Shown: piece by piece, positions 41,440 through 62,983 of the stretch
Position numbering within the stretch: position 1 is the stretch's first letter
Layout: the number at the start of each line of letters is the position of its first letter
From: Alphaproteobacteria bacterium
GTDB taxonomy: Bacteria; Pseudomonadota; Alphaproteobacteria; UBA828
Assembly (NCBI GenBank): GCA_963667785.2
Contig: CAXXMU010000002.1
Span: 704,001-768,000 of the forward strand
Length of the DNA: 64,000 bases
Direction: 5' to 3'
The notes under the pieces: generated by a model
Seen by the model: the letters and a program-made list of their open reading frames with translations, nothing else
Database searches by the model: none
Told to the model about the DNA's origin: nothing
Made by a program: the position numbers and the translations under genes

Positions 41440-41509
41440 TGATCTGTCAGATCACAGGGTCATGAAGCGCGCGTCTGCCGATATCGAGCGGAAATCTTCC
41501 GATTTCCGC
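41440..41509. promoter_or_regulatory. Two palindromes upstream of the lipoprotein autotransporter
   Basis: TGATCTG-T-CAGATCA (41440-41454) and GCGGAAATC-TTCC-GATTTCCGC (41488-41509), in an AT-rich upstream region. Confidence 0.4.
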
Positions 41510-41772
41510 AAAAGACGTCGCAGCATACATAAGTAGAGGGAATGTGCTTTGCGATCTAACATTGGACTTTTTTGATATAGCATGAAAGCGCAGCCGCTGC
41601 CAACGCGGCTGCCCGAGCGCGTGGCGACCCCTCTATGGCCGGGGACGCGGCGGTGGATTAACCCAGCGATTTCGGTGGAGTCGGGCCGGCGTACGAGCCC
41701 CCGCCCGGCAGCCGCGGGCCGCCACCCTTCTCGCCCCGCCCCTTCTCCCGAGGGGGAAGAGGGTGAGTTGGG

Positions 41773-43968
41773 CTACTCGGCGGCGTCGGGCAGCGGCGCG
41801 GCTTCGGTGACGGCGCGGAGGCCCGCGATCACGTCCTCCTGCTGGGCGAGCGCCGCCGTCTCCAGCACCTTGGAGACCACGGGCGCGGCCTGCGAGCCCG
41901 AGACCCTGAGGATCTCGTGGTCGAGCCAGTCGAAGAGCCGCTCCTGCGCCTCCTGGGCGATGCGCGCGCCGAGCGAGGGGCCGCGCGCGGTCTGCTCCAC
42001 GATCAGCAGACGGTTGGTGCGCCTGACGCTCGCGCCGATGGTCTCCCAGTCCATGCCGAGCGGGTCGAGGGTGCGCAGGTCGATCACCTCGGCGTCGATA
42101 CCGGCGGCATCCGCGGCCGCCGTGCTCACCGGCACCATGTTGGCGCAGGTCACCAGGGTGCAGGCGCTGCCAGGGCGCACGATGCGCGCCTTGCCGAAGG
42201 GGATGCAGTAGTCGAGGTCGTCGGGCACCGGGCCCGTCTCCTGATAGAGCGCCTGGCACTCGATGATCGCCACCGGATCGTTGCAGCGGACGGCGCTGTT
42301 GAAGAGTCCGACATAGTCGAAGGGCGTGGTCGGCGCGACGATGCGCCAGCCCGGCCAGAGCGCGAAGACGCCCGACGGGTCCATCGAGTGCTGCGAGCCG
42401 TAGCCACCGCCGGCGGCGACGCGGGCGCGCAGGATGAGCGGGGCCGTATGGTCGCCGCCGAACATGTGGCGCACCTTGGCGGCCTGGTTGAAGAGCTGGT
42501 CCGCCGCCACCAGGCAGAAGTCGGCGTACATGATCTCGACGATCGGCCTGAGCCCGTTGACCGCCGCCCCCAGCCCCATGCCGCAAAAACCGTTCTCGGC
42601 GATGGGCGTGCCGATGAGGCGCTCGGGAAAGGCCTCGGCGATCCCCTTGGTGGCGCCGACCGTGCCGCCCTTCAGCCGGTGCACGTCTTCGCCCAGCACG
42701 ATCACGCTCTCGTCCCGCTCCATCGCGTGGAACTGGGCGGCGGCGATGGATTCGATGTAGGTCATCTCGCGAGCAGCGGCGGGATCGACCTCCTCCGGCG
42801 CCATGGCGCGCACGCCGTCGAGCTCCGAGAGATCGCCGCGGATGCCGTGGTCGACCGCCGCAGCGTCGGGCCAGAGCGCCGGCACCACGCGCAGCCGGTT
42901 GGAGCCGGGCTCGGTCTCGGTCAATGCCTGCGCGGCCTTCTCCACGGCCTCGCCCGCCCGCCCCTCCAGCCGGGCGACGGCGGCCTCGCCCAGGATGCCG
43001 AGTTCCACCAGGCGCTTCGGCATGGTCGTCACCGGGTCGCGGGCGTGCCAGGCTTCCTCCTCGTCCTTCTCGCGGTAGCCGAAGGCGCTGCCCTTCATCG
43101 GCCCGTGCTGGTGGAAGTAGCGGTAGGTGAGGGACTCGATCAGCACCGGCCCGTTGCCCGCCTCGATCTCGGACCTCGCCCACTGCATCGCCTTGCGCAC
43201 CGCCATCACGTCCATGCCGTCGACCTCGACCGAGGGCACCGCGACCCCTTGCCCCCGCGCGCTGAGCCGCGTCTCGCGCGTGGTCTCGGAGACGTGGGTG
43301 GAGACGCCGTAGAGGTTGTTCTCGACGAAGAAGACGATGGGCAGGTCGTAGAGAGCGGCCATGTTGAGGGATTCGTAGGCCGCGCCGTTCTGCATCGCGC
43401 CGTCGCCGAAGAAGGTGACGGTGAGGTTGCCGCTCTTCCTCAGCTTCTCTGCAAGCGCGTAGCCCACCGCCTGCGGCGGGTTGCCGCCGACGATGGCGTT
43501 GGTGCCGAGCACGCCGGCCTCGTCCCAGCGCATGTGCATGGAGCCGCCGCGCCCGCCGCAGTAGCCCGGCGTGAGCCCCATGATCTCGGCCATCGAGCGG
43601 TGCACCACCTCCTGCATCGGCTCGGGCCAGTCGCTGCTGAGCGGGTCGTAGCCGAGCGGCACCGCGTGGTTGAGGAACTTGGCGAGGAACTGGTGGTGGG
43701 CGCGGTGGGTGGCGTTGATCTTGTCGTCATCGGTCAGCGTCGACATGGCGCCGACCGCGCCGCCCTCCTGGCCGATGCTGGCGTGCGCCGGCCCGTGCAC
43801 GCAGCCCGCCTTGAAGAGCGCGAGGATGCGCTCCTCGAAGCGGCGGACGAGGAGGAGCTGCTCGAGCAGATAGGCCAGGATGCGCGGATCCTCGTCCCGC
43901 CAGTCGGCCTCGTCGGCCACCAGCCGGTGCCACGGAGTCTCCGAGGTCAGCGGTTCCATCGTCGGCAT
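41773..43968 (-). CDS. Fused E1 alpha/beta ThDP-dependent 2-oxoacid/acetoin dehydrogenase-like protein, 731 aa
   Basis: HASIGQEG, GRGGSMH and FFGDGA...ENN (ThDP motif); beta part has GEDV, TPIAENG, EIMYADF, SQHS and IDLRTL. Start re-assigned to 43968 after an AGGGGAGG RBS. Confidence 0.9.
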   Translation of the reverse strand: MPTMEPLTSETPWHRLVADEADWRDEDPRILAYLLEQLLLVRRFEERILALFKAGCVHGPAHASIGQEGGAVGAMSTLTDDDKINATHRAHHQFLAKFLNHAVPLGYDPLSSDWPEPMQEVVHRSMAEIMGLTPGYCGGRGGSMHMRWDEAGVLGTNAIVGGNPPQAVGYALAEKLRKSGNLTVTFFGDGAMQNGAAYESLNMAALYDLPIVFFVENNLYGVSTHVSETTRETRLSARGQGVAVPSVEVDGMDVMAVRKAMQWARSEIEAGNGPVLIESLTYRYFHQHGPMKGSAFGYREKDEEEAWHARDPVTTMPKRLVELGILGEAAVARLEGRAGEAVEKAAQALTETEPGSNRLRVVPALWPDAAAVDHGIRGDLSELDGVRAMAPEEVDPAAAREMTYIESIAAAQFHAMERDESVIVLGEDVHRLKGGTVGATKGIAEAFPERLIGTPIAENGFCGMGLGAAVNGLRPIVEIMYADFCLVAADQLFNQAAKVRHMFGGDHTAPLILRARVAAGGGYGSQHSMDPSGVFALWPGWRIVAPTTPFDYVGLFNSAVRCNDPVAIIECQALYQETGPVPDDLDYCIPFGKARIVRPGSACTLVTCANMVPVSTAAADAAGIDAEVIDLRTLDPLGMDWETIGASVRRTNRLLIVEQTARGPSLGARIAQEAQERLFDWLDHEILRVSGSQAAPVVSKVLETAALAQQEDVIAGLRAVTEAAPLPDAAE

Positions 43969-44232
43969 GGCGCCCTCCCCTGCCCGCTCCGGCACGCGTC
44001 CGCTCGGCGGCGCCGGAAGCGCCCGGTTCTTATAGCAGAGATGGCATGGCCGGCGCGCCTCGGCAGCCGCAGCTAGGCTTCGGCCCTCCAGCGCGCGTTC
44101 CGCGTGACTCTTCTCTGCGCGTCCCGCGCGACGCGGGCCGTGACAGCGGTCGGACATCCGGGCTAGAACCGCGCGCACGCACCGGCGGCTTCGCCGGACG
44201 GGATGATGCGGCGGAGAGGCCGACGGCACGCG

Positions 44233-45102
44233 ATGATCTACGACGAGCCGCGTTTCAGGCCGGGCGGCGACCGCTTCATCGAGATGGAGCTCGGCGACGA
44301 GCTCAATTTCGATCTCAACTTCCTGGTGCATGCGCTGACCGCGCGGGTACGCGAGGCCCGGCTCGACGGCATCATCGAGCTGTTGCCCAACATGGCCTCC
44401 ATCGTCATCAGCTACGCGCCCGAGCGGATCGGCTACGACGACGTCGTGCGCGAGATCGGCGCGCTCTTCGCCTCCCTCGGCTCGCTTGAGGACGTGGAGC
44501 TGCCGAGCCCGCTCTACACCTTCCCCGTGCTCTACTTCGACCACCTCACCCGTGCCTGCTGGGAGGACTACTGCGCCCGCATCGGCGAGAAGGAGTACGA
44601 CCCCGACCTCATGGTGAGGCTCAATGCGCTGGAGAGCCGCGCGCAGCTCGCGCGCATCCATTCCGGCACGGAGTACTGGGTCGCGGCACTGGGCTTCTAC
44701 CCCGGCCTCGCCTCGCTGATCGCGCTGGATCCGCGCTGCCGCCTCACGGCGCCGAAGTACAACCCGCCGCGCACCTGGACGCCGAAGGGAACGCTCGGCT
44801 ACGGCGGCTCCGTCACCTGCCTCTATCCGGCCCGCACCCCCGGCGGCTACCAGATCATCGGCCACTCGCCGGTGCCGGTGTTCGACCTGGAGCAGCGGCT
44901 GCGCGCCTTCCGCGATCGCCTCGCCCTGCTCCGGCCGGGCGACCGCGTGCGCTTCGTGCCCGTGGGCCGGGAGGAATACGACCACGTGACGGCAGAGGTG
45001 GAGAGCGGCGCCTACGAGCACCAGGTCGCGGCCTACGCGAAGTTCTCGATCCGCGCCTACCACGAGTGGCTCGCGACCCTCGACATGAGCGTCAGGTTCT
45101 GA
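44233..45102 (+). CDS. Carboxyltransferase / allophanate-hydrolase subunit 1 type protein (PxpB-like), copy 1
   Basis: GGDRF..ELG, GFYPG, PKYNPPRTWTP and PGGYQIIG motifs; 289 aa. Confidence 0.85.
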   Translation: MIYDEPRFRPGGDRFIEMELGDELNFDLNFLVHALTARVREARLDGIIELLPNMASIVISYAPERIGYDDVVREIGALFASLGSLEDVELPSPLYTFPVLYFDHLTRACWEDYCARIGEKEYDPDLMVRLNALESRAQLARIHSGTEYWVAALGFYPGLASLIALDPRCRLTAPKYNPPRTWTPKGTLGYGGSVTCLYPARTPGGYQIIGHSPVPVFDLEQRLRAFRDRLALLRPGDRVRFVPVGREEYDHVTAEVESGAYEHQVAAYAKFSIRAYHEWLATLDMSVRF

Positions 45103-46085
45103 TGATCGAAGTGGTCAAGGCCGGGCTCGAGACCGGCGTGCAGGATTTTCCCGGCCGCTACGGCTTCTGGGAGCAGGGCTTCCCGCCGTCGGGCCCCTTC
45201 GACATGTGGTCCTTCCGCCTTGCCAACCTGCTGGTGGGCAACGCGGACGACGCTGCGGGGCTGGAGATCCAGTTCCTCGGGCCGACGCTCCGCTTCGAGA
45301 GCGAGATGCTGATCGCGCTGACCGGTGCCACGATGGCGCCGACCCTCGACGGCGCGCCCATGCCCCAGTGGGAGAGCGTCGCCGTGCCCGCCGGAGCGGT
45401 GCTGGAGACCGGCTTCGCAAGCACCGGCGCCCGCGCCTACCTCGCCGTCGCCGGCGGCATCGACACGACCCCGGTGCTGGGCTCGCGCTCGACCTTTCAC
45501 ATGGCCGGAGTCGGCGGCATGGAGGGCCATGCGCTCAAGGACGGCCAGCGCCTGCCGCTGGGCGACGGGGCCGGGGCCGGCAGGCCGGGCCGGCGGGTCA
45601 GGGCCGACTGCCGGCCGCCGATCTCTGCGGGCAAGGAGTGGCGGATCGAGGTCGTCGCCGGCCCCAACGACGACTGGATCGACGAGGCGGGCCAGCGCAT
45701 GTTCCTGGAGAGCGCGTGGACGCTGCAGGCCCGCAGCAACCGCACCGGCTATCGCCTCTCCGGCCCGGAGTGGACCTTCGCCGCCCGCGCCACCGACAAG
45801 GGACCGGAGCACGGCGAGCATCCCTCCAACATCCTCGACCACGGCTATCCGGTGGGCGCGGTGAACCTCTGCGGCCAGACGCCGATCATCCTGGTCAACG
45901 ACGGGCCGTCGGCCGGCGGCTTCATCAACCCCTTCACGGTGCCGTCCGCCGCGTTCTGGAAGCTCGCCCAGTCCAAGCCCAACGACGTCTACCGCTTCGA
46001 TCTCGTCTCGGTCGCCGACGCGCAGGCCGAGCGGCGGCGGATCGACGCGCTCTGCAGCGAGACCAGCCTGGAGAACGCCGGGTGA
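45102..46085 (+). CDS. Carboxyltransferase / allophanate-hydrolase subunit 2 type protein (PxpC-like), copy 1
   Basis: VQDFPGR, GFPPSGPFD, ANLLVGN, LGSRST, SNRTGYRL and DGPSAGGF motifs; TGATG overlap. Confidence 0.88.
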   Translation: MIEVVKAGLETGVQDFPGRYGFWEQGFPPSGPFDMWSFRLANLLVGNADDAAGLEIQFLGPTLRFESEMLIALTGATMAPTLDGAPMPQWESVAVPAGAVLETGFASTGARAYLAVAGGIDTTPVLGSRSTFHMAGVGGMEGHALKDGQRLPLGDGAGAGRPGRRVRADCRPPISAGKEWRIEVVAGPNDDWIDEAGQRMFLESAWTLQARSNRTGYRLSGPEWTFAARATDKGPEHGEHPSNILDHGYPVGAVNLCGQTPIILVNDGPSAGGFINPFTVPSAAFWKLAQSKPNDVYRFDLVSVADAQAERRRIDALCSETSLENAG

Positions 46086-46951
46086 TCTTCGACGAGCCGC
46101 GCTTCCTGCCCGGCGGCGATACCTTCGTGCTGGTGCAGTTCGGCGACGATGCGCGCATCGACCTCAACTTCATGGCGCTGGGGCTGACGGCGGCACTGCG
46201 CGAGGACCGCACGAAGGGCGTGATCGATACCAACCCCTCCTACAATTCGGTGGTGGTGGAGTACGACCCGGACCTGATCGGCGCGGACGACCTGGAGCGG
46301 GAGCTCCGTCGTCTCATCGAGGGGCTCGGCCCGGTCGAGGACCTGGAGCTGGAGAGCCGCCTCGCCTACCTCCCCGTCATGTACCGCGACCCGTGGACGA
46401 AGGCCTGTGTCGAGGACTACGCCGAGCGCATCGCGCCGCGCGAAGACGACCCGGAATTCGTGGCCCGAATCAACGGGCTGGAGGACGCGGCTCAGCTCGT
46501 GCGCGTGCATTCGGGAACCGAGCACTGGGTCGTCGCGGTGTGCTCCACGCCGGGGCTGCCGCTGATGGTGGCGCTCGATCCGCGCTGCGCCATCACCTCG
46601 CCCAAGTACAACCCGCCGCGCACCTGGACGACGCTCGGCGCCATCGGCGTCGGTGGTCTCTCCACCTCGATCTACACGACGCCCGGGCCGGGCGGCTACA
46701 ACCTGATCGGCCGCACGCCGGTGCCGCTCTGGGACACGCAGGCGAGGCTGCCGGCCTACCGCGACCGGGTGGTGCTGCTGGATGCCGCCGACAGGGTCAA
46801 GTTCGTGCCCGTCGAGCGCGAAGAGTTCGACTACATCGAGAGCCGCGTGGCCGCCGGCACCTACACCTTCAACGTGACCGGCTACCAGCGTTTCTCCGTC
46901 CGTGCCTACAAGGCATGGGCCGCCTCCCTCGATGCGAGCGAGCGGTTCTGA
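46082..46951 (+). CDS. Carboxyltransferase subunit 1 type protein (PxpB-like), copy 2
   Basis: GTG start in a GTGA overlap; colinear paralog of 44233-45102 (IFDEPRFLPGGD, HSGTEHWV, PKYNPPRTWT, PGGYNLIGRTP); 289 aa. Confidence 0.85.
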   Translation: MIFDEPRFLPGGDTFVLVQFGDDARIDLNFMALGLTAALREDRTKGVIDTNPSYNSVVVEYDPDLIGADDLERELRRLIEGLGPVEDLELESRLAYLPVMYRDPWTKACVEDYAERIAPREDDPEFVARINGLEDAAQLVRVHSGTEHWVVAVCSTPGLPLMVALDPRCAITSPKYNPPRTWTTLGAIGVGGLSTSIYTTPGPGGYNLIGRTPVPLWDTQARLPAYRDRVVLLDAADRVKFVPVEREEFDYIESRVAAGTYTFNVTGYQRFSVRAYKAWAASLDASERF

Positions 46952-46954
46952 GAC

Positions 46955-47956
46955 ATGGGATTCACGGTCGTCAAGGGCGGTCTCGAGACTACGGTGCAGG
47001 ACTATCCGGGCCGAAAGGGCGCCTTCGGCATGGGCTTCCCACCGTCCGGGCCCATCGACCACTGGTCCTTCCGCCTCGCCAACGTCCTGGTCGGCAATTC
47101 GCCGGGCGCGGCGGCGCTGGAATGTGCCTTCATCGGGCCGGTGCTGCGCGCAGACCGGGACGCGGTAATCGCGCTCACCGGCGCCGACATGAAGGCCACC
47201 CTCGACGGCGCGCCCGTGCCGCTCTGGGAGAGTGTCGCCGTGCATGCCGGGCAGACGCTGGCGCTGGGCTCCGCCGTCACCGGCGCGCGCACCTACATCG
47301 CCTTCGCCGGCGGCATCGAGGTGGCTCCCTTCCTCGGCTCGCGCGCGACCTTCGTCATCGGCGCCTGCGGCGGCCTCGAAGGCGCCGCGCTGAAGGAGGG
47401 ACAGTCCATCCCTCTGGAGCCCACCGGCGCAGCAACGCCCGGCCGCAGGCTGAGGGAGGGTGCCCGCCCGCCCGCGCCCGCCGGCGGCGCCTGGGAGATC
47501 GAGGTCGTCGCCGGTCCCAACGACGACTGGATCGACGAGGCCGGCAAGCGGCGCTTCCTGACGAGCGACTGGCGGCTTTCGTCCAAGAGCAATCGCGTCG
47601 GCTTCCGCCTCGACGGGCCGGACTGGACCTTCACCGCGAAGGCGACCGACAAGGCACCGGCGAACGGCGAGCACCCCTCCAACGTGATCGACCACGGCTA
47701 CCCCATCGGCGCCATCAACCTCTGCGGCCAGACCCCCATCATCCTGATGGTGGACACCCTCACCCTCGGCGGCTTCATCAACCCCTACACGGTGCCGACC
47801 TGCGCCTGGTGGAAGCTCGGCCAGTCGCGACCCAACGAGATATACCGCTTCCGCGAGGTCACGGTGGCGGCCGCGCAGGCCGAGCGCCGCCGCATCGCCA
47901 CGCTGTGCACCGAGGACTCCCTGGCACCCGGGGAGCAGGACGGCGGCCGGGCATGA
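46955..47956 (+). CDS. Carboxyltransferase subunit 2 type protein (PxpC-like), copy 2
   Basis: TVQDYPGR, GFPPSGPID, SNRVGFRL and GEHPSNVIDHGY motifs; paralog of 45102-46085. Confidence 0.88.
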   Translation: MGFTVVKGGLETTVQDYPGRKGAFGMGFPPSGPIDHWSFRLANVLVGNSPGAAALECAFIGPVLRADRDAVIALTGADMKATLDGAPVPLWESVAVHAGQTLALGSAVTGARTYIAFAGGIEVAPFLGSRATFVIGACGGLEGAALKEGQSIPLEPTGAATPGRRLREGARPPAPAGGAWEIEVVAGPNDDWIDEAGKRRFLTSDWRLSSKSNRVGFRLDGPDWTFTAKATDKAPANGEHPSNVIDHGYPIGAINLCGQTPIILMVDTLTLGGFINPYTVPTCAWWKLGQSRPNEIYRFREVTVAAAQAERRRIATLCTEDSLAPGEQDGGRA

Positions 47957-49116
47957 GGATCGTCGAGATCCGCGATGTTGCTGTGCCCATGGGCGCGCCG
48001 ATGCGGAACGCCGTGATCGACTTCAGCCGGATGACCGTGAGCGCGGTCGCCGTGATCACGGACGTGGTGCGCGGCGGCCGGCCCGTGGTGGGCTTCGGCT
48101 TCAACGCCAACGGCCGTTACGCCCAGAGCGCGCTCATCCGCGAGCGGCTCGCCCCGCGCGTGCTGGAGGCGCCGGAGGAGCACGCGAGCGCGGACGGCTC
48201 CACCCTCGATGCGCGCACCATTCGCCGCCTGATGATGCGGAACGAGAAGCCCGGCGGCCACGGCGAGCGCGCGGTCGCGGTAGCGGCGCTCGACATCGCG
48301 GTCTGGGATGCCGCCGCCAAGATCGCCGACATGCCGCTCTGGGCGATGATCGCGGACGCGGCCGGCACGCGCGCGCCGGAGCGGCGCATCCCCGTCTACG
48401 CCGCCGGCGGCTACTACGACCCCGACAAGGGCACGAAAGGCCTCGTCGCCGAGATGCGGCGCTATCTCGATCAGGGCTACACCCAGGTGAAGATGAAGAT
48501 CGGCGGCGCCACCCTCGACGAAGACCGCGCCAGGATCGAGGCGGTGCTGGCGCTGCTGGGCGGCGACGGCGCCCGGCTCGCGGTGGACGCGAACGGTCGC
48601 TTCGACGCCGAGACCGCGCTCCGCTACGCCGACGCGCTCGTTCCCTACCGCCTCGCCTGGTACGAGGAGCCCGGCGATCCCCTCGACTTCTCCCTCAACG
48701 CGGCGGTGGCGGCGGCCTATCCCGGCGCGATCGCGACCGGCGAGAACCTGCTCTCGCTGCAGGACGCGCGCAACCTGCTCCGCTTCGGCGGAATGCGGCC
48801 GGAAACTGACTTCGTGCAGTTCGACCCGGCGCTCGCCTACGGCGTGGGCGAGACCATCGACATCGTCGCCATGATGGCGGCAGAGGGCTGGTCGCCCCGC
48901 CGCTTCCTCCCCCACGGTGGCAACCTGCTGGCGCTCGCCGCCGCCGGCGGCCTTGTACTCGGCGGCTGCGAATCCTATCCGGGCGTCTTCCAGCCCTTCG
49001 GCGGCTTCGCCGACGACACCCCGGTGGAGGATGGCCGGGTCAGCCTCGGCGATGCGCCCGGTGCCGGCTTCGAGCGCAAGGCCGCGCTCGCCGCACTGCT
49101 CGAGACCCTGCTCTGA
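47953..49116 (+). CDS. Mandelate racemase subgroup enolase-superfamily enzyme, D-tartrate dehydratase-like
   Basis: GFNANGRY, NEKPGGHGER, VYAAGGYY, KMKIGG, VDANG, WYEEPG, TGEN, PHGG and ESYP motifs closely follow my recollection of Bradyrhizobium TarD; ATGA overlap with the upstream gene. Confidence 0.85.
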   Translation: MRIVEIRDVAVPMGAPMRNAVIDFSRMTVSAVAVITDVVRGGRPVVGFGFNANGRYAQSALIRERLAPRVLEAPEEHASADGSTLDARTIRRLMMRNEKPGGHGERAVAVAALDIAVWDAAAKIADMPLWAMIADAAGTRAPERRIPVYAAGGYYDPDKGTKGLVAEMRRYLDQGYTQVKMKIGGATLDEDRARIEAVLALLGGDGARLAVDANGRFDAETALRYADALVPYRLAWYEEPGDPLDFSLNAAVAAAYPGAIATGENLLSLQDARNLLRFGGMRPETDFVQFDPALAYGVGETIDIVAMMAAEGWSPRRFLPHGGNLLALAAAGGLVLGGCESYPGVFQPFGGFADDTPVEDGRVSLGDAPGAGFERKAALAALLETLL

Positions 49117-49169
49117 ATTCCGGTCGGCACGCGGTCCCGGCGGCAGCCGGAGAGACGACGGGGCGGCCC

Positions 49170-50369
49170 ATGCCGAGCGCCGCCGAGTTCGTCCCGCTCG
49201 TCGCCCTGCTGATGGCGCTCGTCGCCCTCTCGATCGACGCCATGCTGCCGGCGCTGCCGGCCATCGGGCATGATCTCGGCGCGGCAGAGCGCAACGACGT
49301 GCAGCTCGTCGTGACCGCCCTCTTCCTCGGGCTCGGCTTCGGGCAGCTCCTCTTCGGCCCGCTTTCCGACGTCATCGGCCGCAAGCCCGCCATCTTCGCC
49401 GGCCTTGCGCTCTTCATGGCCGGCTGCGTCGTCTCGATCCTCGCACCCACCTTCGAATCCATGCTCGCCGGCCGCGTGCTCCAGGGCATCGGCGTCGCGG
49501 CGCCGCGCATCGTCTCGGTGGCGCTGGTGCGCGACCAGTACGAGGGCCGCCGGATGGCCCGCATCATGTCGTTCGCGATGGCGGTGTTCATCCTCGTGCC
49601 CACGCTCGCGCCAGCCATCGGCCAGGGTATCCAGGCGATCGCGGGCTGGCGCGCCATCTTCCTCACGCTCTTCGCCGCCGCCGCCATCGCCGGCATCTGG
49701 CTCATGCTGCGCCAGCCCGAGACGCTGCCGGCCGAGAGGCGCACGCGCCTCTCCCTCAGCGCGCTCGGACGATCGGCGATGGAGGTGCTGCGGGTCCGGC
49801 AGTCGATGGGATACACGCTTGCGCTCGGCTTCGCCTTTTCCCCCTTCGTCGCCTACCTGAGCACGGCCCAGCAGATCTTCCAGGACGCCTACGGCGTGGG
49901 CTCTCTCTTCCCCGCCTATTTCGGCGGGCTGGCGCTGGCGTTCGGCGTCACCGCGCTGGTGAACGGCCATCTCGTCATGCGCTACGGCATGGTCCGCCTC
50001 TCGAGTGTCGCGGCGGTCGGCGCCACCCTCGTCTCGCTGGCGTCGTGGGCGGGAACCTTCGCTTTCGACGGGCTGCTGCCGCTCTGGCTGTTCGTGGTCT
50101 CCCTGATGCTCGTCTTCGCGGCGGTCGGCCTTCTCTTCGGCAACCTGAACGCACTCGCGATGCAGCCTCTCGGCCACGTCGCGGGCGTGGGCGCGGCGCT
50201 CGTCTCGCTGCTGTCCACCCTCATCTCGGTGCCGCTCGGCGGGCTGATCGGCTACGCCTTCGACGGCACGCTCTACGTGCTGCTGGGCTCGTTCGCGCTC
50301 TTCGGCGCGGGGACCTTCGCCGCCATCCGCTGGGCAGCACGCGGCCGGGAGCCGGCGGGACACGCCTGA
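49170..50369 (+). CDS. Bcr/CflA family MFS transporter
   Basis: SIDAMLPALP, GPLSDVIGRKP, GRVLQG and VRDQY motifs; about 12 hydrophobic segments. Confidence 0.9.
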   Translation: MPSAAEFVPLVALLMALVALSIDAMLPALPAIGHDLGAAERNDVQLVVTALFLGLGFGQLLFGPLSDVIGRKPAIFAGLALFMAGCVVSILAPTFESMLAGRVLQGIGVAAPRIVSVALVRDQYEGRRMARIMSFAMAVFILVPTLAPAIGQGIQAIAGWRAIFLTLFAAAAIAGIWLMLRQPETLPAERRTRLSLSALGRSAMEVLRVRQSMGYTLALGFAFSPFVAYLSTAQQIFQDAYGVGSLFPAYFGGLALAFGVTALVNGHLVMRYGMVRLSSVAAVGATLVSLASWAGTFAFDGLLPLWLFVVSLMLVFAAVGLLFGNLNALAMQPLGHVAGVGAALVSLLSTLISVPLGGLIGYAFDGTLYVLLGSFALFGAGTFAAIRWAARGREPAGHA

Positions 50370-50472
50370 TTCGTCCATGCCGGCGCGCTTGTCGGAGCGG
50401 GCGGCGGGCGGGTAGAACCCTCGCAGCCGCCGGCACGGCGCGTGCCGGACGAGAGCGGGAGGTCACGGGCCA

Positions 50473-51399
50473 ATGAGCAAAGTCATCATCACCTGCGCGG
50501 TCACGGGGTCGATCCACACCCCCACCATGTCGCCGCACCTGCCGCTAACGCCAGACGAGATCGCGGCCGACGGCGTGGCCGCGGCTGAGGCCGGCGCCTC
50601 CATCCTCCACCTGCACGCGCGCGACCCCGAGGACGGGCGGCCGACACCGGACCCAGACGTCTTCATGGCCTTCCTGCCGCGCATCAAGCAGCAGTCCGAC
50701 GCGGTCATCAACATCACCACCGGCGGCGGGCTCGGCATGACGCTGGACGAGCGCCTCGCCGCGCCGCGCCGCGCGAGCCCGGAGATGACCTCGCTCAACA
50801 TGGGCTCCATGAACTTCGGCATCTACCCGATGCTGAACCGCTACAAGGAGTTCAAGTACGACTGGGAGAGGCCCCACCTGGAGGGCACGAAGGACTTTAT
50901 TTTCCGCAATACATTCAAGGATATCGAATACATTATGAAGGATCTAGGTGAAGGTCACGGCGTACGCTTCGAGTTCGAGTGCTACGACGTCGGCCACCTC
51001 TACAACCTGGCTCATTTCGTCGACAGGGGCCTGGTGAAGCCGCCGCTCTTCGTGCAGACCATCTTCGGTATCCTGGGCGGCATCGGCGCCGACCACGAGA
51101 ACCTGATGCACATGCGCCGCATCGCCAACAAGCTCTTCGGCGACGACTACCGCTGGTCGATCCTGGCCGCCGGCCGCCACCAGATGAGCTTCGTCACCAT
51201 GGGCGCGATGATGGGGGGCAACATCCGCGTCGGCCTGGAGGACAGCCTCTTCATCGGCAAGGGCGAGCTGGCGCCCTCCAATGCCGCCCAGGTCGCCAAG
51301 GCCAGGCGCATCGTCGAGGAGCTCTCCCTCGAGGTCGCGACGCCGACGGAGGCGCGCGAGATGCTGGGCCTCAAGGGCGGCGATCAGGTGAGTTTCTGA
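50473..51399 (+). CDS. Beta-keto acid cleavage enzyme (BKACE/Kce, DUF849)
   Basis: IITCAVTG, HLHAR, NITTGG, EFECYD and RVGLED motifs. Confidence 0.93.
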   Translation: MSKVIITCAVTGSIHTPTMSPHLPLTPDEIAADGVAAAEAGASILHLHARDPEDGRPTPDPDVFMAFLPRIKQQSDAVINITTGGGLGMTLDERLAAPRRASPEMTSLNMGSMNFGIYPMLNRYKEFKYDWERPHLEGTKDFIFRNTFKDIEYIMKDLGEGHGVRFEFECYDVGHLYNLAHFVDRGLVKPPLFVQTIFGILGGIGADHENLMHMRRIANKLFGDDYRWSILAAGRHQMSFVTMGAMMGGNIRVGLEDSLFIGKGELAPSNAAQVAKARRIVEELSLEVATPTEAREMLGLKGGDQVSF

Positions 51400-51466
51400 G
51401 GGAGCACATCCCCCCCTTAGACGCCAGATGTTCTCATCATGGTGGCCAACGCGAGATGACTGTCGT

Positions 51467-51608
51467 CAAGAGAACCGGGCCGCCAGGCGGCCCGGACGGC
51501 GCGACCGCACGTCGCACGTCCACGTGCGCAGGCGCACGATGCGCCGAAGGCGCGTAGCGTCGCGCGTCCACGCGCGCATGAGCGCGCGATGCGCCTGAGG
51601 GTTCTTGG
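51467..51608. repeat. Palindrome-rich intergenic element (hairpins plus an imperfect direct repeat)
   Basis: CCGGGCCGCC-A-GGCGGCCCGG (51475-51495); direct repeats at 51510-51545 and 51558-51595, each with a hairpin; AGAACC...GGTTCT flanks. Confidence 0.55.
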
Positions 51609-51619
51609 TAGAGTCCCTC

Positions 51620-52105
51620 TCAGAACCTCTCGGCGCGGAACGGTCGGTGGCAGCCGCCGCAGGCGGCGCCGACCGCGCCGAAGGCGCCCTGCAGGCTGGC
51701 GAGATCGGTGCCTGCCGCCGCCACCAGACCCTCCAGCGCCTTGGTCATCGCATCGGCCTTCTCGACGACCGCCGGGAAGGTGGTCCAGATCTCCGCCTTG
51801 GCCCGGGTCTTGCCGGGAAGCGCACCGTTGTCGGAGCCGGGCGGCCACATTGCGCCCACGTCCATCGTGGACAGCGCGAGCAGATTGTTGGCGATCCCGC
51901 TCGCCTGCGCCCCGTCGTAGGGAACCTGGCCCTTGGCGATGCCCGCGAGCTGGCCCATGAAGAAGCCGTTGAGCTGCATGTAGGCCAGGCGGGCCTTGAT
52001 TGCGCCCGAGTGGTCCTCCTGGGCGCTCGCCGTGCCGGTGCCGGCGAACGCCGCCAGCGCGAACACCAGTGCCGCCGCAGCCGAAATCAGTGCGCGTCTC
52101 GTCAT
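51620..52105 (-). CDS. Class II cytochrome c (c' / c556 type)
   Basis: Signal peptide, IKARLAYM helix, C-terminal CGGCH heme motif; start re-assigned to 52105. Confidence 0.9.
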   Translation of the reverse strand: MTRRALISAAAALVFALAAFAGTGTASAQEDHSGAIKARLAYMQLNGFFMGQLAGIAKGQVPYDGAQASGIANNLLALSTMDVGAMWPPGSDNGALPGKTRAKAEIWTTFPAVVEKADAMTKALEGLVAAAGTDLASLQGAFGAVGAACGGCHRPFRAERF

Positions 52106-52278
52106 CGTCTGCCCCCCTGCCCGTGCCGTCCGGGCTTCTTTCCCTGCGCGAATCCTACTCTCCCAAGCCGCCTCCCGCCATCGCCGATTGCCGTCCGCCG
52201 TTCCGACCCGCGCGCTGCGCCGGCTTGCGTTCGCCCCCGCCGGCGGCAATATGGCCGGCGACGGACGAAGGGCACGGC

Positions 52279-54399
52279 ATGAGCGAGAGGAACGGCGCCC
52301 GCTACGTGGTCGCGACCGACGTCGGCGGCACCTGCACCGATGCGGTGCTCTTCGCCGCCGGCGAGCCGGTGCGCCTGGGCAAGGCGCTCTCCACCCCGCC
52401 CGACTTCGCGGACGGCGTGCTCGCCGCCGTCGCCGCCGCGGCGGAAGGCATGGGCATCGCCACGGATGCCTTGCTGGCCGAGACGGGGCTCTTCGTGCAC
52501 GGATCTACGGTGGTCGACAACACGCTGCTCACCCGCACCGGCGCCAGCACCGGGCTCATCACCACGGAGGGCTTCGAGGACACGCTGACCATCACCCGCG
52601 GCGCCTACGGCCGCTGGGCCGGCCTCACCGAGGACGGAATCAAGCACCCCGTGGCGACCGACCGGGCGCCCGCGCTGGTGGCGGGGACGCGCACCAGGGG
52701 CGTGCCGGAGCGGGTGGACTACAAGGGCGCCGTCCTGCGCCCGCTGGACGAGGACGCGGTGCGCGCGGCGATCTGCGCGCTGGTCGAGGATGCGGGCGTG
52801 GACGCGCTGGCCGTCTCCTTCCTCTGGTCCTTCTACAACGACGCCCACGAGCGCCGGGTCGGCGACCTGATCCGCGAGATCGCGCCATCCGTCTACGTCA
52901 CGCTCTCGAGCGAGATCGCGCCGGTGCCGGGCGAGTACGAGCGCGCGTCGACGACGGTCATCAACGCCTATGCCGGGCGCATCGCCCGCGACTACGTGAC
53001 CACCCTGCAGGGGCTGCTCAAGGCGCGCGGCTATGACGGGCCGCTGCTGGTGATGCAGGGCTATGGCGGTCTGCTGCCGGCCGAGGAGGCGGCCGGACGC
53101 GCCGTCGGCATGCTCGAATGCGGCCCCGCCGCCGGCGTCATCGGCAGCCGCCATCTCGGCCAGCTCATGGAGGACGACGACATCATCGCCTGCGACATGG
53201 GCGGCACCACCTTCAAGGTCGGCGTCATCCAGGGTGGGGCGATCGAGTATGCCCGCGAGCCGATGGTCGACCGCTACCACTACGTGGCGCCGAAGATCGA
53301 GGTGGTCTCCATCGGCGCCGGCGGCGGCAGCATCGTGGCGCTGGACCCCGTCACGGGCGTGCCCGGCGTCGGCCCCGCAAGCGCCGGCGCGAGGCCCGGG
53401 CCGGTCTGCTACGGGCTCGGCGGGACCGAGCCGACGCTGACGGACGTCATGCTGCTGGTCGGCTACATGGACCCCGGCACCTTCCTCGGCGGCACCATCA
53501 CGCTCGATGCGCAAGCCGCCCGGCACGCATTCGAGGAGAAGGTGGCCAGGCCGCTCGCCATGAGCGTGGAAGAGGCGGCCATCGGCATCTACCGCATCGC
53601 CGCGGCACAGATCACCGACCTCATCCACGAGATCACGGTGGAGCGCGGCCTCGACTCGCGCGATTTCGTGCTGCACGCCTTCGGCGGAAGCTGCGGGCTG
53701 CTCTGCGGCGTGTTCGGCGCGGAGCTCGGCGTAAAGCGCATCGTGGTGCCCCACACCGCCGCGGTAAACGCCGCCTTCGGCCTGCTGGCCGCCGACATCG
53801 TCCACGAATACAGCGTCACCAGGACGCTGCCGGCGGACAGCCCGGCCGAGGAGATCAACGCGATCTACGCGCCGATGGTGGAGCGCGCCCGCGCCCAGCT
53901 CGCCGCCGAGGGATTCACGGGCGACGTGATCGCGCTGGACTGGTCGGTCGACCTGCGCTACAGCCGCCAGGTGCACGAGGTGACGACACCGGTGGCGGAC
54001 GGCGGGCCGATGGAGGATGCCGCCGTCGCCCGGCTCGCGGCCGATTTCGAGGCGCTCTACGAGCGCAAGTTCGGCAAGGGCTCCGCCTATCGCGCCGCCG
54101 GCATGGAGATGACCATGTTCCGGCTGTCCGCGCGCGGCCTGGTGGAGCGCCCTCCCATCGAGCGCACCCCGCCCGGCGACGGCGATCCGGCGCCCGCGCT
54201 GATCGGCCGGCGCGACATCTTCGTCGAGGCCGCGGGCGCGCTTGCGCCGGCGGACATCTACGACTTCGAGCGGCTCGCGCCCGGCAACGTCGTCGCCGGG
54301 CCTGCAGTGATCCACACGCCGATCACCACCATCGTCCTGCAGGCCGGCCAGGCCGGCCGCATGGACGCATACCGCAACATCGTCATCGAGCTCGGCTGA
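52279..54399 (+). CDS. Hydantoinase/oxoprolinase A subunit (HyuA-like, ATP-binding)
   Basis: DVGGTCTD, HGSTVVDN, EYERASTT, GPAAGV, DMGGTTF, IGAGGGS and GPVCYG motifs. Confidence 0.92.
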   Translation: MSERNGARYVVATDVGGTCTDAVLFAAGEPVRLGKALSTPPDFADGVLAAVAAAAEGMGIATDALLAETGLFVHGSTVVDNTLLTRTGASTGLITTEGFEDTLTITRGAYGRWAGLTEDGIKHPVATDRAPALVAGTRTRGVPERVDYKGAVLRPLDEDAVRAAICALVEDAGVDALAVSFLWSFYNDAHERRVGDLIREIAPSVYVTLSSEIAPVPGEYERASTTVINAYAGRIARDYVTTLQGLLKARGYDGPLLVMQGYGGLLPAEEAAGRAVGMLECGPAAGVIGSRHLGQLMEDDDIIACDMGGTTFKVGVIQGGAIEYAREPMVDRYHYVAPKIEVVSIGAGGGSIVALDPVTGVPGVGPASAGARPGPVCYGLGGTEPTLTDVMLLVGYMDPGTFLGGTITLDAQAARHAFEEKVARPLAMSVEEAAIGIYRIAAAQITDLIHEITVERGLDSRDFVLHAFGGSCGLLCGVFGAELGVKRIVVPHTAAVNAAFGLLAADIVHEYSVTRTLPADSPAEEINAIYAPMVERARAQLAAEGFTGDVIALDWSVDLRYSRQVHEVTTPVADGGPMEDAAVARLAADFEALYERKFGKGSAYRAAGMEMTMFRLSARGLVERPPIERTPPGDGDPAPALIGRRDIFVEAAGALAPADIYDFERLAPGNVVAGPAVIHTPITTIVLQAGQAGRMDAYRNIVIELG

Positions 54400-54407
54400 G
54401 GCCCGCC

Positions 54408-56237
54408 ATGGACCCGATCACCTTCTCGATCATCCGCCACCGGCTGTTCCGCGTCATCGACGAGGCCGTGATCACGCTGAAGCACGTCTCCGGCAGCGCG
54501 ATCACCAACGAGGGCCACGATCTCATGGTCTCGCTCTACCGCGCCGATGGCTCCCTGCTCATGGGCGGCGTGGGCTTCCTACACCATCTCACCAGCGCGG
54601 CGGAGGCCTGCAAGGCGGTCATCCGCCGCTTCGAGGGCGACATCGGCGAGGGCGACGTGTTCCTCACCAACTGCCCCTACACCGCCGCGCTGCACACCTC
54701 CGACATCTACCTGGTGGCGCCGATCCACTACGACGGCCGGCTGGTCGCGTGGAGCGCCTGCTTCGTCCACGTCTACGACATCGGCGCCATGGTGCCCGGC
54801 GGCTTCAGCCCGGATTCGCGCGACATCTTCACCGAGGGCTTCTCATCGCCCGGCATCAAGCTGGTGGAAGGCGGCACCATGCGCCGCGACGTGATGGACA
54901 CGCTGCTCAACATGGTGCGCGCGCCGGAGATGGTGGCGCTCGACCTCTCCTCGATGATCGCGGCCAACAACGTGGCGCGGGAGCGGATGGTGGCGCTAAT
55001 CGAGAAGTACGGCGCAGACCCCGTGGACGAGGCCTGCGCGGCGCTGGTCGACCAGTCGGAGACGCTCTTCCGCAAGCGGCTGCGGGAGCTGCCGGATGGC
55101 CGCTGGGAGGCACGGCAGTACTTCGACATCGAGGACGAGACCTGCCGGGTGCTGCTCGCCATGACCAAGGAGGGCGACGAGCTCACCTTCGATTTCACCG
55201 GCTCCAGCCCGCAGTCGCACTACGGCATCAACTGCACCTACTGGGCCTCGTGGGGCGGCTTCTTCGCCCCCCTCTTCCCGCTGCTCTGCTACGACATCAC
55301 CTGGAACGACGGCGTGCTCAGGCCGATCAGGATGATCGCGCCGGAGGGCTCGGTAGTGAACTGCACGCGGCCTGCGCCGGTCTCGCTCGCCACCGTGGGC
55401 GCGATCCAGTCGGTCAACAACGCCGCCTGCACCTGCATCGCCAAGATGCTGTCCGCGAGTGAGACCTACGCGAAGGAGGCCACGGCCGTCTGGCACGGCA
55501 GCCACTTCGCCATCTTCATGTTCGGCCTCAACCAGCGCCGCCAGGAGGCCATCGGCATCCTGACCGAGACCTTCGGCGGTGCGGGCGGGGCCCGCACCTG
55601 GGCCGACGGCATCGACGTCGGCGGCGAGATCCCGAACCCCATCGGCCGCATGGCCAATGTCGAGACCACCGAGGCGACCTTCCCGGTGCGCTACCTCTTC
55701 CGCCGGGCGCGCCCGGACACCGGCGGGCCGGGGCGCTGGCGCGGCGGCAACGGGATCGAGTTCGCCCTGGTGCAGCACGATTCACCCGAGGGCGGCATCA
55801 ACTACGTGGTCTCGGGCAAGGGCACCGAGTTCTCGATGAGCGAAGGACTGGGCGGCGGCTATGCCGGCGCGCCCTGCGCCTACCGCTGGGTGCACAACAA
55901 CCGCGCCAAAGAGGCCGGGCGCAACGTCAACCCCTTCCCCACCTCCCTCGACGAGATGACCGGCGAGGCGGAGACGATCTCCTGGGGCGTGTTCCCGCTC
56001 AAGGGCGACGACGCGCTCTACGTCCGCTCCGACGGCGGCGGCGGCTTCGGCGACCCGCTGGAGCGGGAGCCCGCGCGGGTGCAGGCCGACGTCCAGGCCG
56101 GCGCGGTCTCGGCGGAAGTGGCGGCCCGGGTCTACGGCGTGGTGACGGCGGCCGGCGGGGTGGACGAGGACGCGACACAGGCCCGCCGCGAGGCGCTCCG
56201 CCAAGCCCGGCTCGCGACGCCTGTGGCAGCCGAATGA
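54408..56237 (+). CDS. Hydantoinase/oxoprolinase B subunit (HyuB-like)
   Basis: MDPITFSII, GDVFLTNCPY...HTSD, HVYDIG, EG, DFTGSSPQ, GPGRWRGG and GGGGFGDPLER motifs. Confidence 0.92.
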   Translation: MDPITFSIIRHRLFRVIDEAVITLKHVSGSAITNEGHDLMVSLYRADGSLLMGGVGFLHHLTSAAEACKAVIRRFEGDIGEGDVFLTNCPYTAALHTSDIYLVAPIHYDGRLVAWSACFVHVYDIGAMVPGGFSPDSRDIFTEGFSSPGIKLVEGGTMRRDVMDTLLNMVRAPEMVALDLSSMIAANNVARERMVALIEKYGADPVDEACAALVDQSETLFRKRLRELPDGRWEARQYFDIEDETCRVLLAMTKEGDELTFDFTGSSPQSHYGINCTYWASWGGFFAPLFPLLCYDITWNDGVLRPIRMIAPEGSVVNCTRPAPVSLATVGAIQSVNNAACTCIAKMLSASETYAKEATAVWHGSHFAIFMFGLNQRRQEAIGILTETFGGAGGARTWADGIDVGGEIPNPIGRMANVETTEATFPVRYLFRRARPDTGGPGRWRGGNGIEFALVQHDSPEGGINYVVSGKGTEFSMSEGLGGGYAGAPCAYRWVHNNRAKEAGRNVNPFPTSLDEMTGEAETISWGVFPLKGDDALYVRSDGGGGFGDPLEREPARVQADVQAGAVSAEVAARVYGVVTAAGGVDEDATQARREALRQARLATPVAAE

Positions 56238-56509
56238 GCGCGACCCGCATCTCGGCCACCCTCGCGGTGAACGAGGACCGCACCATCGCATGCCTGGCGT
56301 GCGGCCATGCGCTGGGCCCTGCCGGCGCGCCCTGGAAGGAACACGCCCGGCTCGACGAGCAGCCCATGCAGGGCGCCGGCGGCGCGCCCTACAGCAACGC
56401 CGAGCGGGTCCTGCTGCGGCGCTTCTACTGCCCCGGCTGCAGCGCCCTGCTGGATACCGAATCGGCGCTCGCGGGCGATCCCTTCCTCACCGACATCGTG
56501 CGGGTGTAG
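56234..56509 (+). CDS. Acetone carboxylase gamma subunit-like Zn-binding protein
   Basis: CLACGH...WK and RFYCPGCSALLDTE motifs; ATGA overlap with the B subunit. Confidence 0.8.
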   Translation: MSATRISATLAVNEDRTIACLACGHALGPAGAPWKEHARLDEQPMQGAGGAPYSNAERVLLRRFYCPGCSALLDTESALAGDPFLTDIVRV

Positions 56510-56520
56510 AGGGCCATCCC

Positions 56521-57210
56521 GTGCACGATATCGCCATCCGCCCGGAGATCGTCGAGCGGGTCGTGAAGCGGCGCGGGCGGATGCGCCTCTTCGAGCGGCT
56601 CGATCCGGCGCGTTGCGCGGCAGTCTACATCGACATGCAGGTGACCTTCCTCGCGCCGGGCGCGCCGGTGGAGGTGCCGATGGCACGCGCCGTCGTGCCC
56701 CGGATCAACGCTCTCAACGCGCGGCTCAGGGCGCTCGGCGTGGCCGTCTTCTGGGTCGCCCACGCCAACGCGTGCCGCGACGACGGCGCCTCCGACTGGC
56801 CCGGCTTCTTCGACCATTTCGTCGCCGACGAGGCGCGCGCCCGCACTATTGCGGGTCTTGCGCCGGGTGCCGACGGCCAGAAACTCTGGCCCGCGCTGGA
56901 GGTCGCGGACGAGGACACCCTCCTCTTCAAGAACCGCTACAGCGCGCTGATCGCCGGGTCCTCGCCGCTCGAGGGGATGTTGCGCGAGCGCGGCATAGAC
57001 ACGCTGCTCATCGGCGGCACCAAGACCGACGTCTGCTGCGAATCGACGGCGCGGGACGCGATGATGCTCGACTTCAAGACCGTGATGATCGCCGACTGCT
57101 GCGCAGCGCTTACCGACGAGGAGCACCGCGACGCGCTGGAGACCGTCATCCAGCAGTTCGGCGACGTGATGAGCGCCGACGAGGCCCTCGCGGCGCTGGG
57201 GGGCGGCTAG
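56521..57210 (+). CDS. Isochorismatase-family cysteine hydrolase (N-carbamoyl/ureido amidohydrolase-like)
   Basis: Asp-Lys-Cys triad motifs IDMQ, KNRYSA and DVCCESTARDA; GTG start. Confidence 0.9.
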   Translation: MHDIAIRPEIVERVVKRRGRMRLFERLDPARCAAVYIDMQVTFLAPGAPVEVPMARAVVPRINALNARLRALGVAVFWVAHANACRDDGASDWPGFFDHFVADEARARTIAGLAPGADGQKLWPALEVADEDTLLFKNRYSALIAGSSPLEGMLRERGIDTLLIGGTKTDVCCESTARDAMMLDFKTVMIADCCAALTDEEHRDALETVIQQFGDVMSADEALAALGGG

Positions 57211-57252
57211 GCTTCCCTCCCCGCTTTCGCCCTTTGGCCGCGCCGCCCTTCC

Positions 57253-59148: not shown

Positions 59149-59157
59149 GGGCAGGCG

Positions 59158-59964: not shown

Positions 59965-60012
59965 CTGGAGGAGGGCGCGGCGCCCGCCGCGCCGAATAAC
60001 GGGAGGCCATCC

Positions 60013-61428: not shown

Positions 61429-61439
61429 GCCCGGCTCTT

Positions 61440-61465
61440 GGGGGAGGGGCGTCGTCCCCTCCCCC
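61440..61465 (+). terminator. Stem-loop between the two SBP genes
   Basis: GGGGGAGGGG-CGTCGT-CCCCTCCCCC; the T-tail is weak, so this may be an mRNA-stabilising hairpin. Confidence 0.45.
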
Positions 61466-61507
61466 GTCGCTTTCCGGCGCCGTTGCGCCGAACGAGGGAG
61501 GTAATCA

Positions 61508-62923: not shown

Positions 62924-62933
62924 TCCGGTACTC

Positions 62934-62960
62934 GGAGGGGGCGCGTCCCGCGTCCCCTCC
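62934..62960. terminator. Stem-loop between convergent genes
   Basis: GGAGGGGGCGCG-TCC-CGCGTCCCCTCC. Confidence 0.45.
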
Positions 62961-62983
62961 CCCTCTTCCCTCTGTCGTCGGCC

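Follow-up and report, generated by a model that had tools for sequence, protein, structure and literature searches.

Twin carboxyltransferase pairs of the urea carboxylase type beside a TarD-like enolase gene in an alphaproteobacterial genome

Closest described systems and anatomy of the cluster

The described systems closest to the cluster presented here are the fused urea carboxylase, the PxpABC 5-oxoprolinase, the MSMEG_0435-0436 pair of M. smegmatis and, for its last gene, the D-tartrate dehydratase TarD of Bradyrhizobium. The cluster comprises five genes at 44233..49116 of a stretch of 64,000 nucleotides (the window; assembly GCA_963667785.2, contig CAXXMU010000002.1, positions 704,001 to 768,000 of the forward strand) from an Alphaproteobacteria bacterium: two successive pairs of carboxyltransferase (CT) genes and a gene for an enolase-superfamily protein. 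Throughout the text B is the subunit with the CT_C_D domain and C the one with CT_A_B, BC is biotin carboxylase, BCCP is the biotin carrier and the twin is the arrangement B1-C1-B2-C2; G000 is the genome of the window, other G numbers are sampled genomes and L numbers are fetched loci. Of the bacterial enzymes whose reaction is still unsettled, split B-C proteins of the urea carboxylase type are, to our knowledge, some of the most common, 5-oxoprolinase and urea/guanidine carboxylase aside. The twin pairs are tentatively read as satellite paralogues of a complete PxpA-BC-B-C-BCCP system whose parts are scattered in G000. The genes of the cluster are the following:

44233..45102, + strand: B1, CT_C_D subunit of 289 amino acids (aa), long urea-carboxylase-like form (Pfam E 1.9e-41)
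45102..46085, + strand: C1, CT_A_B subunit of 327 aa, TGATG overlap with B1 (Pfam E 4.9e-87)
46082..46951, + strand: B2, CT_C_D subunit of 289 aa, GTG start, GTGA overlap with C1 (Pfam E 4.6e-43)
46955..47956, + strand: C2, CT_A_B subunit of 333 aa, 3-nt gap after B2 (Pfam E 1.5e-84)
47953..49116, + strand: TarD-type enolase-superfamily protein of 387 aa, ATGA overlap with C2 (Pfam MR_MLE_N and MR_MLE_C)

The five genes, their junctions and their fold families, as called in the original prediction, were all confirmed in the DNA and by Pfam, and the DNA contains the motifs it had pointed out, which are GFYPG and DGPSAGGF for pair 1 and CSTPG and DTLTLGGF for pair 2. The window has a G+C content of about 70%. 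Identity is 52% between B1 and B2 and 65% between C1 and C2; within its own genome pair 1 is nearest to a further pair on contig 6 (63% for B1, 74% for C1).

The best relatives in the PDB are the CT domains of the K. lactis urea carboxylase (3VA7, 5I8I), with which the twin shares both Pfam domains and the catalytic lysine; the B subunits also have a C-terminal extension aligning to KlUC 841-1116. K175 of B1 and B2 aligns with K1605 of KlUA and is kept in all long-B groups; K1605 is given as the likely general base of the CT reaction in PMC5770610. Both B and C score highest against the urea carboxylase model TIGR02712, over partial ranges and with 167-308 bits for a cut-off of 1303.85. The twin combines CT_A_B and CT_C_D with the catalytic lysine; BC, CT and BCCP are not joined in a single polypeptide, the CT genes are split in the order B-then-C and duplicated in tandem whereas the fused order is C-then-B, and BC and BCCP are lacking in cis. 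C shares only 43-47% identity with fused forms, and B 30-35%. Neither a product hydrolase nearby nor a riboswitch upstream was identified; Rfam gave no match at E<=1 in 43600-44500 and none at gathering scores in the whole window, and a guanidine or other riboswitch, or a known RNA, upstream of B1 was rejected on these empty scans.

The 5-oxoprolinase (PxpB/KipI, PxpC/KipA, PxpA/LamB) shares with the twin the superfamily, the B-then-C order and, in the related genome G048, a PxpA gene beside the twin. It differs in that the twin proteins remain below its cut-offs (PxpB model TIGR00370: 90.5 for B1 and 76.9 for B2 against 145.55; PxpC model NF045499: 175.2 for C1 and 161.3 for C2 against 500), in the B subunits of about 289 aa with their urea-carboxylase-like extension, in a separate clade and in the lack of a pxpA gene in the operon or elsewhere in the window. 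The proposal that pair 1 and a distal PxpA are simply an ordinary 5-oxoprolinase, by which the original prediction might have been explained away, is unsupported by both family scores and trees.

MSMEG_0435-0436 (3MML, 9YX5) resembles the twin in being a naked B-C pair without its own BC or BCCP. According to its description (PMC13012033, 2026), this PxpC/PxpB-like pair binds the biotin of another carboxylase's BCCP domain, acts as an acyl-CoA carboxylase modulator and is without the residues needed for urea carboxylase activity. It is distant from the twin (E 1e-26 to C2) and, unlike it, is not described as belonging to a catabolic operon.

The enolase matches D-tartrate dehydratase Bll6730 (2DW6/2DW7) over its full length, with about 60% identity, 465 bits and E 1.6e-138 against PDB 2DW7. 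The stretches KMK, DANG, WYEE, TGEN and PHGG are identical in the alignment, and we take them to contain the Lys-x-Lys and the His of catalysis and three metal ligands of that enzyme. By full-length similarity and these stretches the protein would belong with the D-tartrate dehydratases; unlike Bll6730, it follows CT genes, as it does only here and in close relatives.

Occurrence, selection and descent of the twin

A search with B2, covering one genome per species, recovered 20 related loci from 19 assemblies titled Alphaproteobacteria, Rhodospirillales, Rhodospirillaceae or uncultured Rhizobiaceae metagenome-assembled genomes (MAGs). The order B-C-B-C is the same in 14 of the 14 loci holding all four CT genes, the remaining six being cut by contig ends and holding consecutive genes in matching order, and the enolase gene comes after C2 in 16 of the 16 loci whose flank is long enough. 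The survey of neighbourhoods proposed with the original prediction was thus run, and the arrangement, recurring in these loci, is not due to chance. Among 401 alphaproteobacterial genomes, 101 carry CT_A_B, and two such genes within 3 kb were identified only in G000, G048 and G351, three of the four genomes of the window's family, the exception being G222. A sample of 401 genomes across Pseudomonadota contained no twin outside G000 among the 150 matches listed (24 more were unlisted), and 72,556 plasmids gave 12 records with CT genes, at one place each, and no twin.

The layout varies within the family. G351 has E1-like and glyoxalase genes divergent from B-C-B-C followed by the genes for a beta-keto acid-cleaving enzyme (BKACE) and a CoA ligase; G222, of the same genus, has that same layout with a single B-C pair (E1-like divergent from B-C-BKACE). 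In G048 a PxpA gene is divergent beside B1 and no close E1-like gene is present. Besides its twin, G351 holds a lone pair-2-like pair (L050) adjoining amidase, nitrile hydratase and hydroxy-acid dehydrogenase genes. In two MAGs a gene for a dehydrogenase similar to 3-hydroxyisobutyrate and 6-phosphogluconate dehydrogenases lies between B2 and C2 (L038:6862-7803, L039:7449-8354); a truncated remnant of it was seen in L040 and similar genes lie beside naked pairs of G351 (L050) and G247 (L060). L031, a complete relative, has short open reading frames inserted between B1 and C1 (7100-7900) and between C2 and the enolase gene (10950-11411), which, judged by eye from their translations, resemble a toxin with its antitoxin and a DUF559-like endonuclease. 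In L030 (3800-7150), AT-richer DNA with other open reading frames takes the place of the E1-like gene upstream of B1 and may be a mobile insertion.

A TarD-like gene was found in 41 of the 401 alphaproteobacterial genomes, with 45-61% identity outside the window's family, and adjoins CT genes only in G000 and G048 and in none of the 39 others; it is absent from the twin cluster of G351 and from the cluster of G222. The likeness to TarD stated in the original prediction holds, whereas the coupling to the CT pairs is confined to part of one family. In G045 the homologue comes after a LysR gene and TctCAB transporter genes, a context that fits di- or tricarboxylate uptake.

The lineage occurs in sequencing runs labelled as sponge metagenome, which contain 0.44-0.45 of the sampled words, and long contig pieces of one of them match the window. 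In one run labelled as sponge metatranscriptome, short contigs of relatives cover 30 of 30 bins of 41500-57300 with 88-99% likeness; as such libraries can contain DNA and their contigs reveal neither strand nor transcript ends, this does not speak for expression or co-transcription.

Median pairwise dN/dS is 0.125 for B1, 0.177 for C1, 0.157 for B2 and 0.224 for C2, the values for the enolase and the E1-like gene being 0.171 and 0.150; by this measure both pairs are under purifying selection. A relaxed selection or decay of pair 2 was ruled out, its values being like those of the neighbours and its frames intact in 19-20 orthologues; the suspicion that the arrangement is unique to this genome, with pair 2 drifting, fails on this selection and on the 20 related loci. 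What distinguishes pair 2 is a set of changes fixed in the 19-20 orthologues: Y148H, L153V, G154C and Q207N in B2, and W23F and S270T in C2, the latter within the DTLTLGGF motif. The changed sites are invariant in every other long-B and fused group, and G154 and Q207 in all nine other groups.

The tree of C comprises 74 rows, leaving out L036 (a duplicate of L049) and one partial row. Split genes with a long B form a clade in both trees (SH-aLRT 99 for C, 96 for B), which in the C tree is sister to the fused urea carboxylase (99) and lies apart from another clade of PxpA-BCCP-BC-B-C clusters (100) and from the BC-less Pxp-type rows. Within it, pair 1, the contig-6 pair and naked pairs linked to HydA/HydB genes group together (99), biotin-linked copies are their sister (95) and pair 2 branches separately; the B tree recovers a pair 2 group (96) and a pair-1 group (99). 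Six columns tell the biotin-linked rows apart from the only two to three BC-less Pxp-type rows; pair 1 agrees with the biotin-linked state in six of them and pair 2 in five.

Remote partners and how the pairs may work

The original prediction had stated that no PxpA or biotin module accompanies the pairs. This stands for the window, where Pfam scans of the large open reading frames were empty, and fails for the genome, in which the proposed search was run: all part types were found, every whole-genome hit to LamB_YcsF, Biotin_carb_C and Biotin_lipoyl lying outside 704001-768000 of contig 2. The assembly contains exactly four CT_A_B and four CT_C_D genes: those of the twin, those of the contig-6 pair, which adjoins GST and CoA-transferase genes, and those of a split pair. 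The B of the split pair directly follows the sole stand-alone BC on contig 1 (500505-502760, L023); its C lies on contig 2 (L020, 802055-803248), 51 kb downstream of the twin, and is directly followed by a BCCP of 70 aa with the motif EVMKTE, C and BCCP together spanning 802055-803172. Both places are internal to long contigs, and the latter C has a class-IV aminotransferase gene before it and precedes an FAD oxidoreductase gene. The four B proteins are all of 289 aa and 48-63% identical, the four C proteins 59-74%. Two orphan PxpA genes were identified, one at 820751 of contig 2, which is 83% identical to the PxpA beside B1 in G048, and another 78% identical to the PxpA of a PxpA-BC-B-C-BCCP cluster of G351. 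None of the four CT_A_B hits of the genome belongs to a fused urea carboxylase, and DUF1989 genes (carboxyguanidine deiminase type) are present in the genome but far from every CT locus.

Clusters with these parts occur elsewhere. Among 18 non-fused CT loci from other sampled genomes, a non-random set picked by open frames of about 320-420 aa, BC lies beside B-C in 12 and PxpA in 11, and among five further loci in three and five, respectively, the usual order being PxpA-(BCCP)-BC-B-C(-BCCP). The counterparts of the scattered genes of G000 are contiguous in relatives, as BC-B-C-BCCP in G048 and PxpA-BC-B-C-BCCP in G351. Naked pairs 64-71% identical to pair 1 adjoin HydA/HydB in G247 and G304, and that of G247 sits in a HydB-HydA-PxpA-B-C string. 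The twin pairs and the B-C genes of these biotin-linked clusters are paralogues of common descent (copies of G000, G048, G351 and G247 fall in the clade); the twin differs from the clusters in having shed BC, BCCP and PxpA, the first two being present in trans only, in being duplicated and in being joined to other catabolic genes. Remote partners are present in G000 and in seven of seven relatives checked. All five complete twin-bearing relatives have a C with a mini-BCCP, the latter 91-96% identical, together with five to seven copies of CT_A_B and two to four of PxpA each. The term candidate new system was accordingly too strong for what are extra paralogues of a previously noticed but uncharacterised PxpA-BC-B-C-BCCP cluster type.

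The reading we favour, tentatively and somewhat short of calling it probable, is that B1-C1 and B2-C2 are two separate, catalytically competent and specificity-diverged satellite CT heterodimers fed by a shared BC and BCCP. To the anatomy, conservation, selection, phylogeny and remote parts described above it adds the proposal that the pairs use the BCCP in trans, differ in specificity and are linked to the neighbouring enzymes. The pairs would descend from a biotin-dependent system similar to urea carboxylase and would have become separated from the BC, BCCP and PxpA genes. The single dedicated BC would charge the single 70-aa BCCP, from which both pairs most likely take carboxybiotin, because the twin has no ATP-grasp enzyme or carrier of its own. 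Each pair would pass CO2 to its own small substrate, different for the two since the motif set of pair 2 is remodelled, and the products may be handled by enzymes of the surrounding island (E1-like, TarD-like dehydratase, BKACE, hydantoinase-like, amidase) or by a remote PxpA. The single pair of G222, the lone pair-2-like pair of G351 and the insertions between B2 and C2 argue for modular, separately working pairs. Of the two options left in the original prediction, the one with a remote partner shared by two enzymes of diverged specificity fits the conservation, the purifying selection, the fixed motifs of pair 2, the retained lysine and the presence of partners, while that of an undescribed four-subunit complex is disfavoured by the G222 and G351 pairs.

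Several observations weigh against two satellite heterodimers fed by a shared carrier. No BC or BCCP is present in the twin operon, in the window or in any of the 20 related loci, and that the BCCP serves any C beyond its neighbouring one is something we infer. A prediction of B2 and C2 with the 70-aa BCCP scored 0.44 (runs 0.41-0.49; best control 0.01), with a partner pLDDT of at least 88 and agreement of the runs in at least 94% of contacts; of 157 solved complexes 116 passed the mark, as did 2 of 215 mismatches, and scores of 0.60 or below that passed it came from only 18 of the 157 and from both passing mismatches. Since similar complexes are already solved, this score may reflect likeness only. 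The predicted docking lends weak support and, being weak, counts on the opposite side as well. In the B tree the biotin-linked copies are unplaced and the sister link to the fused urea carboxylase was not recovered. The loss of G154 and Q207 could mean, as far as the alignment goes, that pair 2 is non-catalytic. The PxpA, rather than a biotin gene, beside the G048 twin points to a PxpABC-like and possibly biotin-independent mode. Finally, the best score for allophanate hydrolase in the genome is 231 bits against a cut-off of 511, which leaves the downstream step undefined and makes it unlikely that any pair is a textbook urea carboxylase.

The model for allophanate hydrolase matched 30 stretches of the whole genome below its cut-off, at about 25 separate places and several in two pieces. 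These look like amidase-signature paralogues and suggest a large repertoire for amide breakdown.

The main rival to shared-carrier heterodimers, rather unlikely but to be taken seriously, is the PxpABC-like mode just mentioned: each pair would activate a lactam or amide carbonyl with ATP, without biotin, and a remote PxpA would open or hydrolyse the product, the substrates being other than 5-oxoproline. Its model is the phosphorylation of 5-oxoproline with ATP that PxpB and PxpC are assumed to carry out, as given in PMC13274462. The close likeness of the orphan PxpA at 820751 to the gene beside the G048 twin speaks for it, and so do the HydB-HydA-PxpA-B-C string of G247 and the PxpA genes at 11 of the 18 and all five further non-fused loci. 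Against it stand the PxpB and PxpC cut-offs, of which B and C fall short by wide margins, and the grouping of the twin among biotin-linked and fused forms rather than BC-less Pxp rows. PxpA moreover adjoins B1 in only one of the 17 related loci holding B1 with upstream flank, that of G048, and in G773 the orthologue of the 820751-type PxpA appears frameshifted while the twin is intact. The latter gene lies in two frames at contig 1, 2282236-2282945, through either a frameshift or an assembly error.

It appears improbable that the four subunits form an obligate B1C1B2C2 complex, with pair 2 serving pair 1 as a specialised or non-catalytic partner. The translational coupling of all four genes, the order kept in every four-gene locus and the absence from pair 2 of two otherwise invariant residues are what such a complex would predict, but G222 has a single pair, the pair-2-like pair of G351 stands alone beside amidase and nitrile hydratase genes, a dehydrogenase gene separates B2 from C2 in two loci and pair 2 keeps the catalytic lysine.

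The surrounding island and the meaning of the apparent expansion

The remaining features of the island around the twin are the following:

41773..43920 (start approximate), - strand: fused E1 alpha+beta thiamine-diphosphate enzyme of about 715 aa (Pfam E1_dh, Transket_pyr, Transketolase_C)
43921..44232, no strand: intergenic region between the divergent operons, with conserved short boxes and no Rfam family
49170..50369, + strand: MFS transporter, Bcr/CflA type (family search), not found at the equivalent place in related loci with the queries used
50473..51399, + strand: BKACE (NF053538, 550 bits against a cut-off of 430)
52300..56237, + strand: hydantoinase/oxoprolinase-family subunits A (start approximate) and B (54408-56237), HydA/HydB (Pfam)
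56590..57210 (start approximate), + strand: isochorismatase-family hydrolase (family search), after HydB in L040 and L044

The E1-like gene is transcribed divergently from B1 and is the most constant neighbour of the twin, being present in 15 of the 17 related loci holding B1 and also, as divergent neighbour, in G351 and G222; the top NCBIfam models of its product are pyruvate dehydrogenase E1 alpha and beta, both below their cut-offs. In the intergenic region the boxes TTATAGCAGA and GCTAGAACC are kept among close relatives and the palindrome TGTGATCACA in the divergent intergenic region of more distant ones; these may be operator or promoter elements, judging by their conservation. No sigma-70 consensus or promoter-like site was found by a promoter scan that included 43921..44232, and of six terminator-like sites found by scan none marks an operon border.

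In NCBIfam the BKACE clears the equivalog cut-off of the model for 3,5-dioxohexanoate:acetyl-CoA acetone transferase. Its gene is found downstream in 8 of the 20 related loci and, in G351 and G222, right behind the CT genes, and at 82-98% identity across the family no protein of the island but the mini-BCCP is better conserved. HydA/HydB are downstream of the twin in 7 of the 20 loci; none of their top NCBIfam matches, caprolactamase CapA/CapB and acetophenone carboxylase, reaches its cut-off. After the island (58357-63999) the window contains genes for two aldolases of the HpcH type, for two paralogous solute-binding proteins and for the beta subunit of a nitrile hydratase, and nitrile hydratase and amidase genes also flank the pair-2-like pair of G351 (L050). 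On the other side, an open frame of more than 4046 aa with nine Calx-beta stretches and cadherin-like, fn3 and SWM repeats, probably a huge adhesin by its domains, runs off the window end (1-12141, - strand), and a second large protein of 1312 aa with a PPC domain is encoded at 37476-41414 (- strand).

These neighbours bear on a transcarboxylase independent of BC, to which we give little credence: one pair would load the BCCP with CO2 taken off a beta-keto acid such as the oxaloacetate that the TarD-like dehydratase would make, and the other would pass it on to an acceptor whose carboxylated product feeds the BKACE, the E1-like enzyme taking the pyruvate. Two different CT pairs in an operon without BC would suit this scheme, as would the TarD-like, pyruvate dehydrogenase E1-like and BKACE neighbours (the last above its equivalog cut-off) and the hydroxy-acid dehydrogenase and CoA-transferase genes that recur beside naked pairs. 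Against it, we know of no CT of this family that acts on carbon acids, G222 has one pair, G351 and G222 are without the enolase, G048 has no close E1-like gene and the genome does have a BC. It would be similarly surprising if the twin proved to be, more broadly, a biotin-dependent transcarboxylase or carbon-carboxylating enzyme built from CT modules of the urea carboxylase type, with the shared BCCP, without ATP and with a ketone or amide acceptor whose product goes to the BKACE. If true, however, this CT family would gain a chemistry without earlier report, ATP-free transcarboxylation or carbon carboxylation.

Least credible of all is that the pairs are, rather than enzymes, regulators sequestering the biotin of a carrier: MSMEG_0435-0436, as described in PMC13012033, offers a precedent and the weak predicted docking of the BCCP speaks for it, but the pairs conserve the catalytic lysine and most superfamily motifs, lie within translationally coupled catabolic operons and occur in four to seven copies per genome.

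Returning to the two satellite heterodimers, the twin appears to be an expansion, specific to this lineage, of an enzyme type with unsettled chemistry. Its value is that of a well-defined test case, a new mechanism not being revealed as yet. This lineage has multiplied its CT pairs to four to seven per genome while keeping one dedicated BC and one mini-carrier. If that single BC and BCCP serve several CT pairs that differ in specificity, the arrangement would parallel the shared alpha subunit of the actinobacterial acyl-CoA carboxylases and would provide a natural panel of specificity variants, among which pair 2, with fixed changes in four motifs conserved across the superfamily, would be useful for learning what such enzymes carboxylate.

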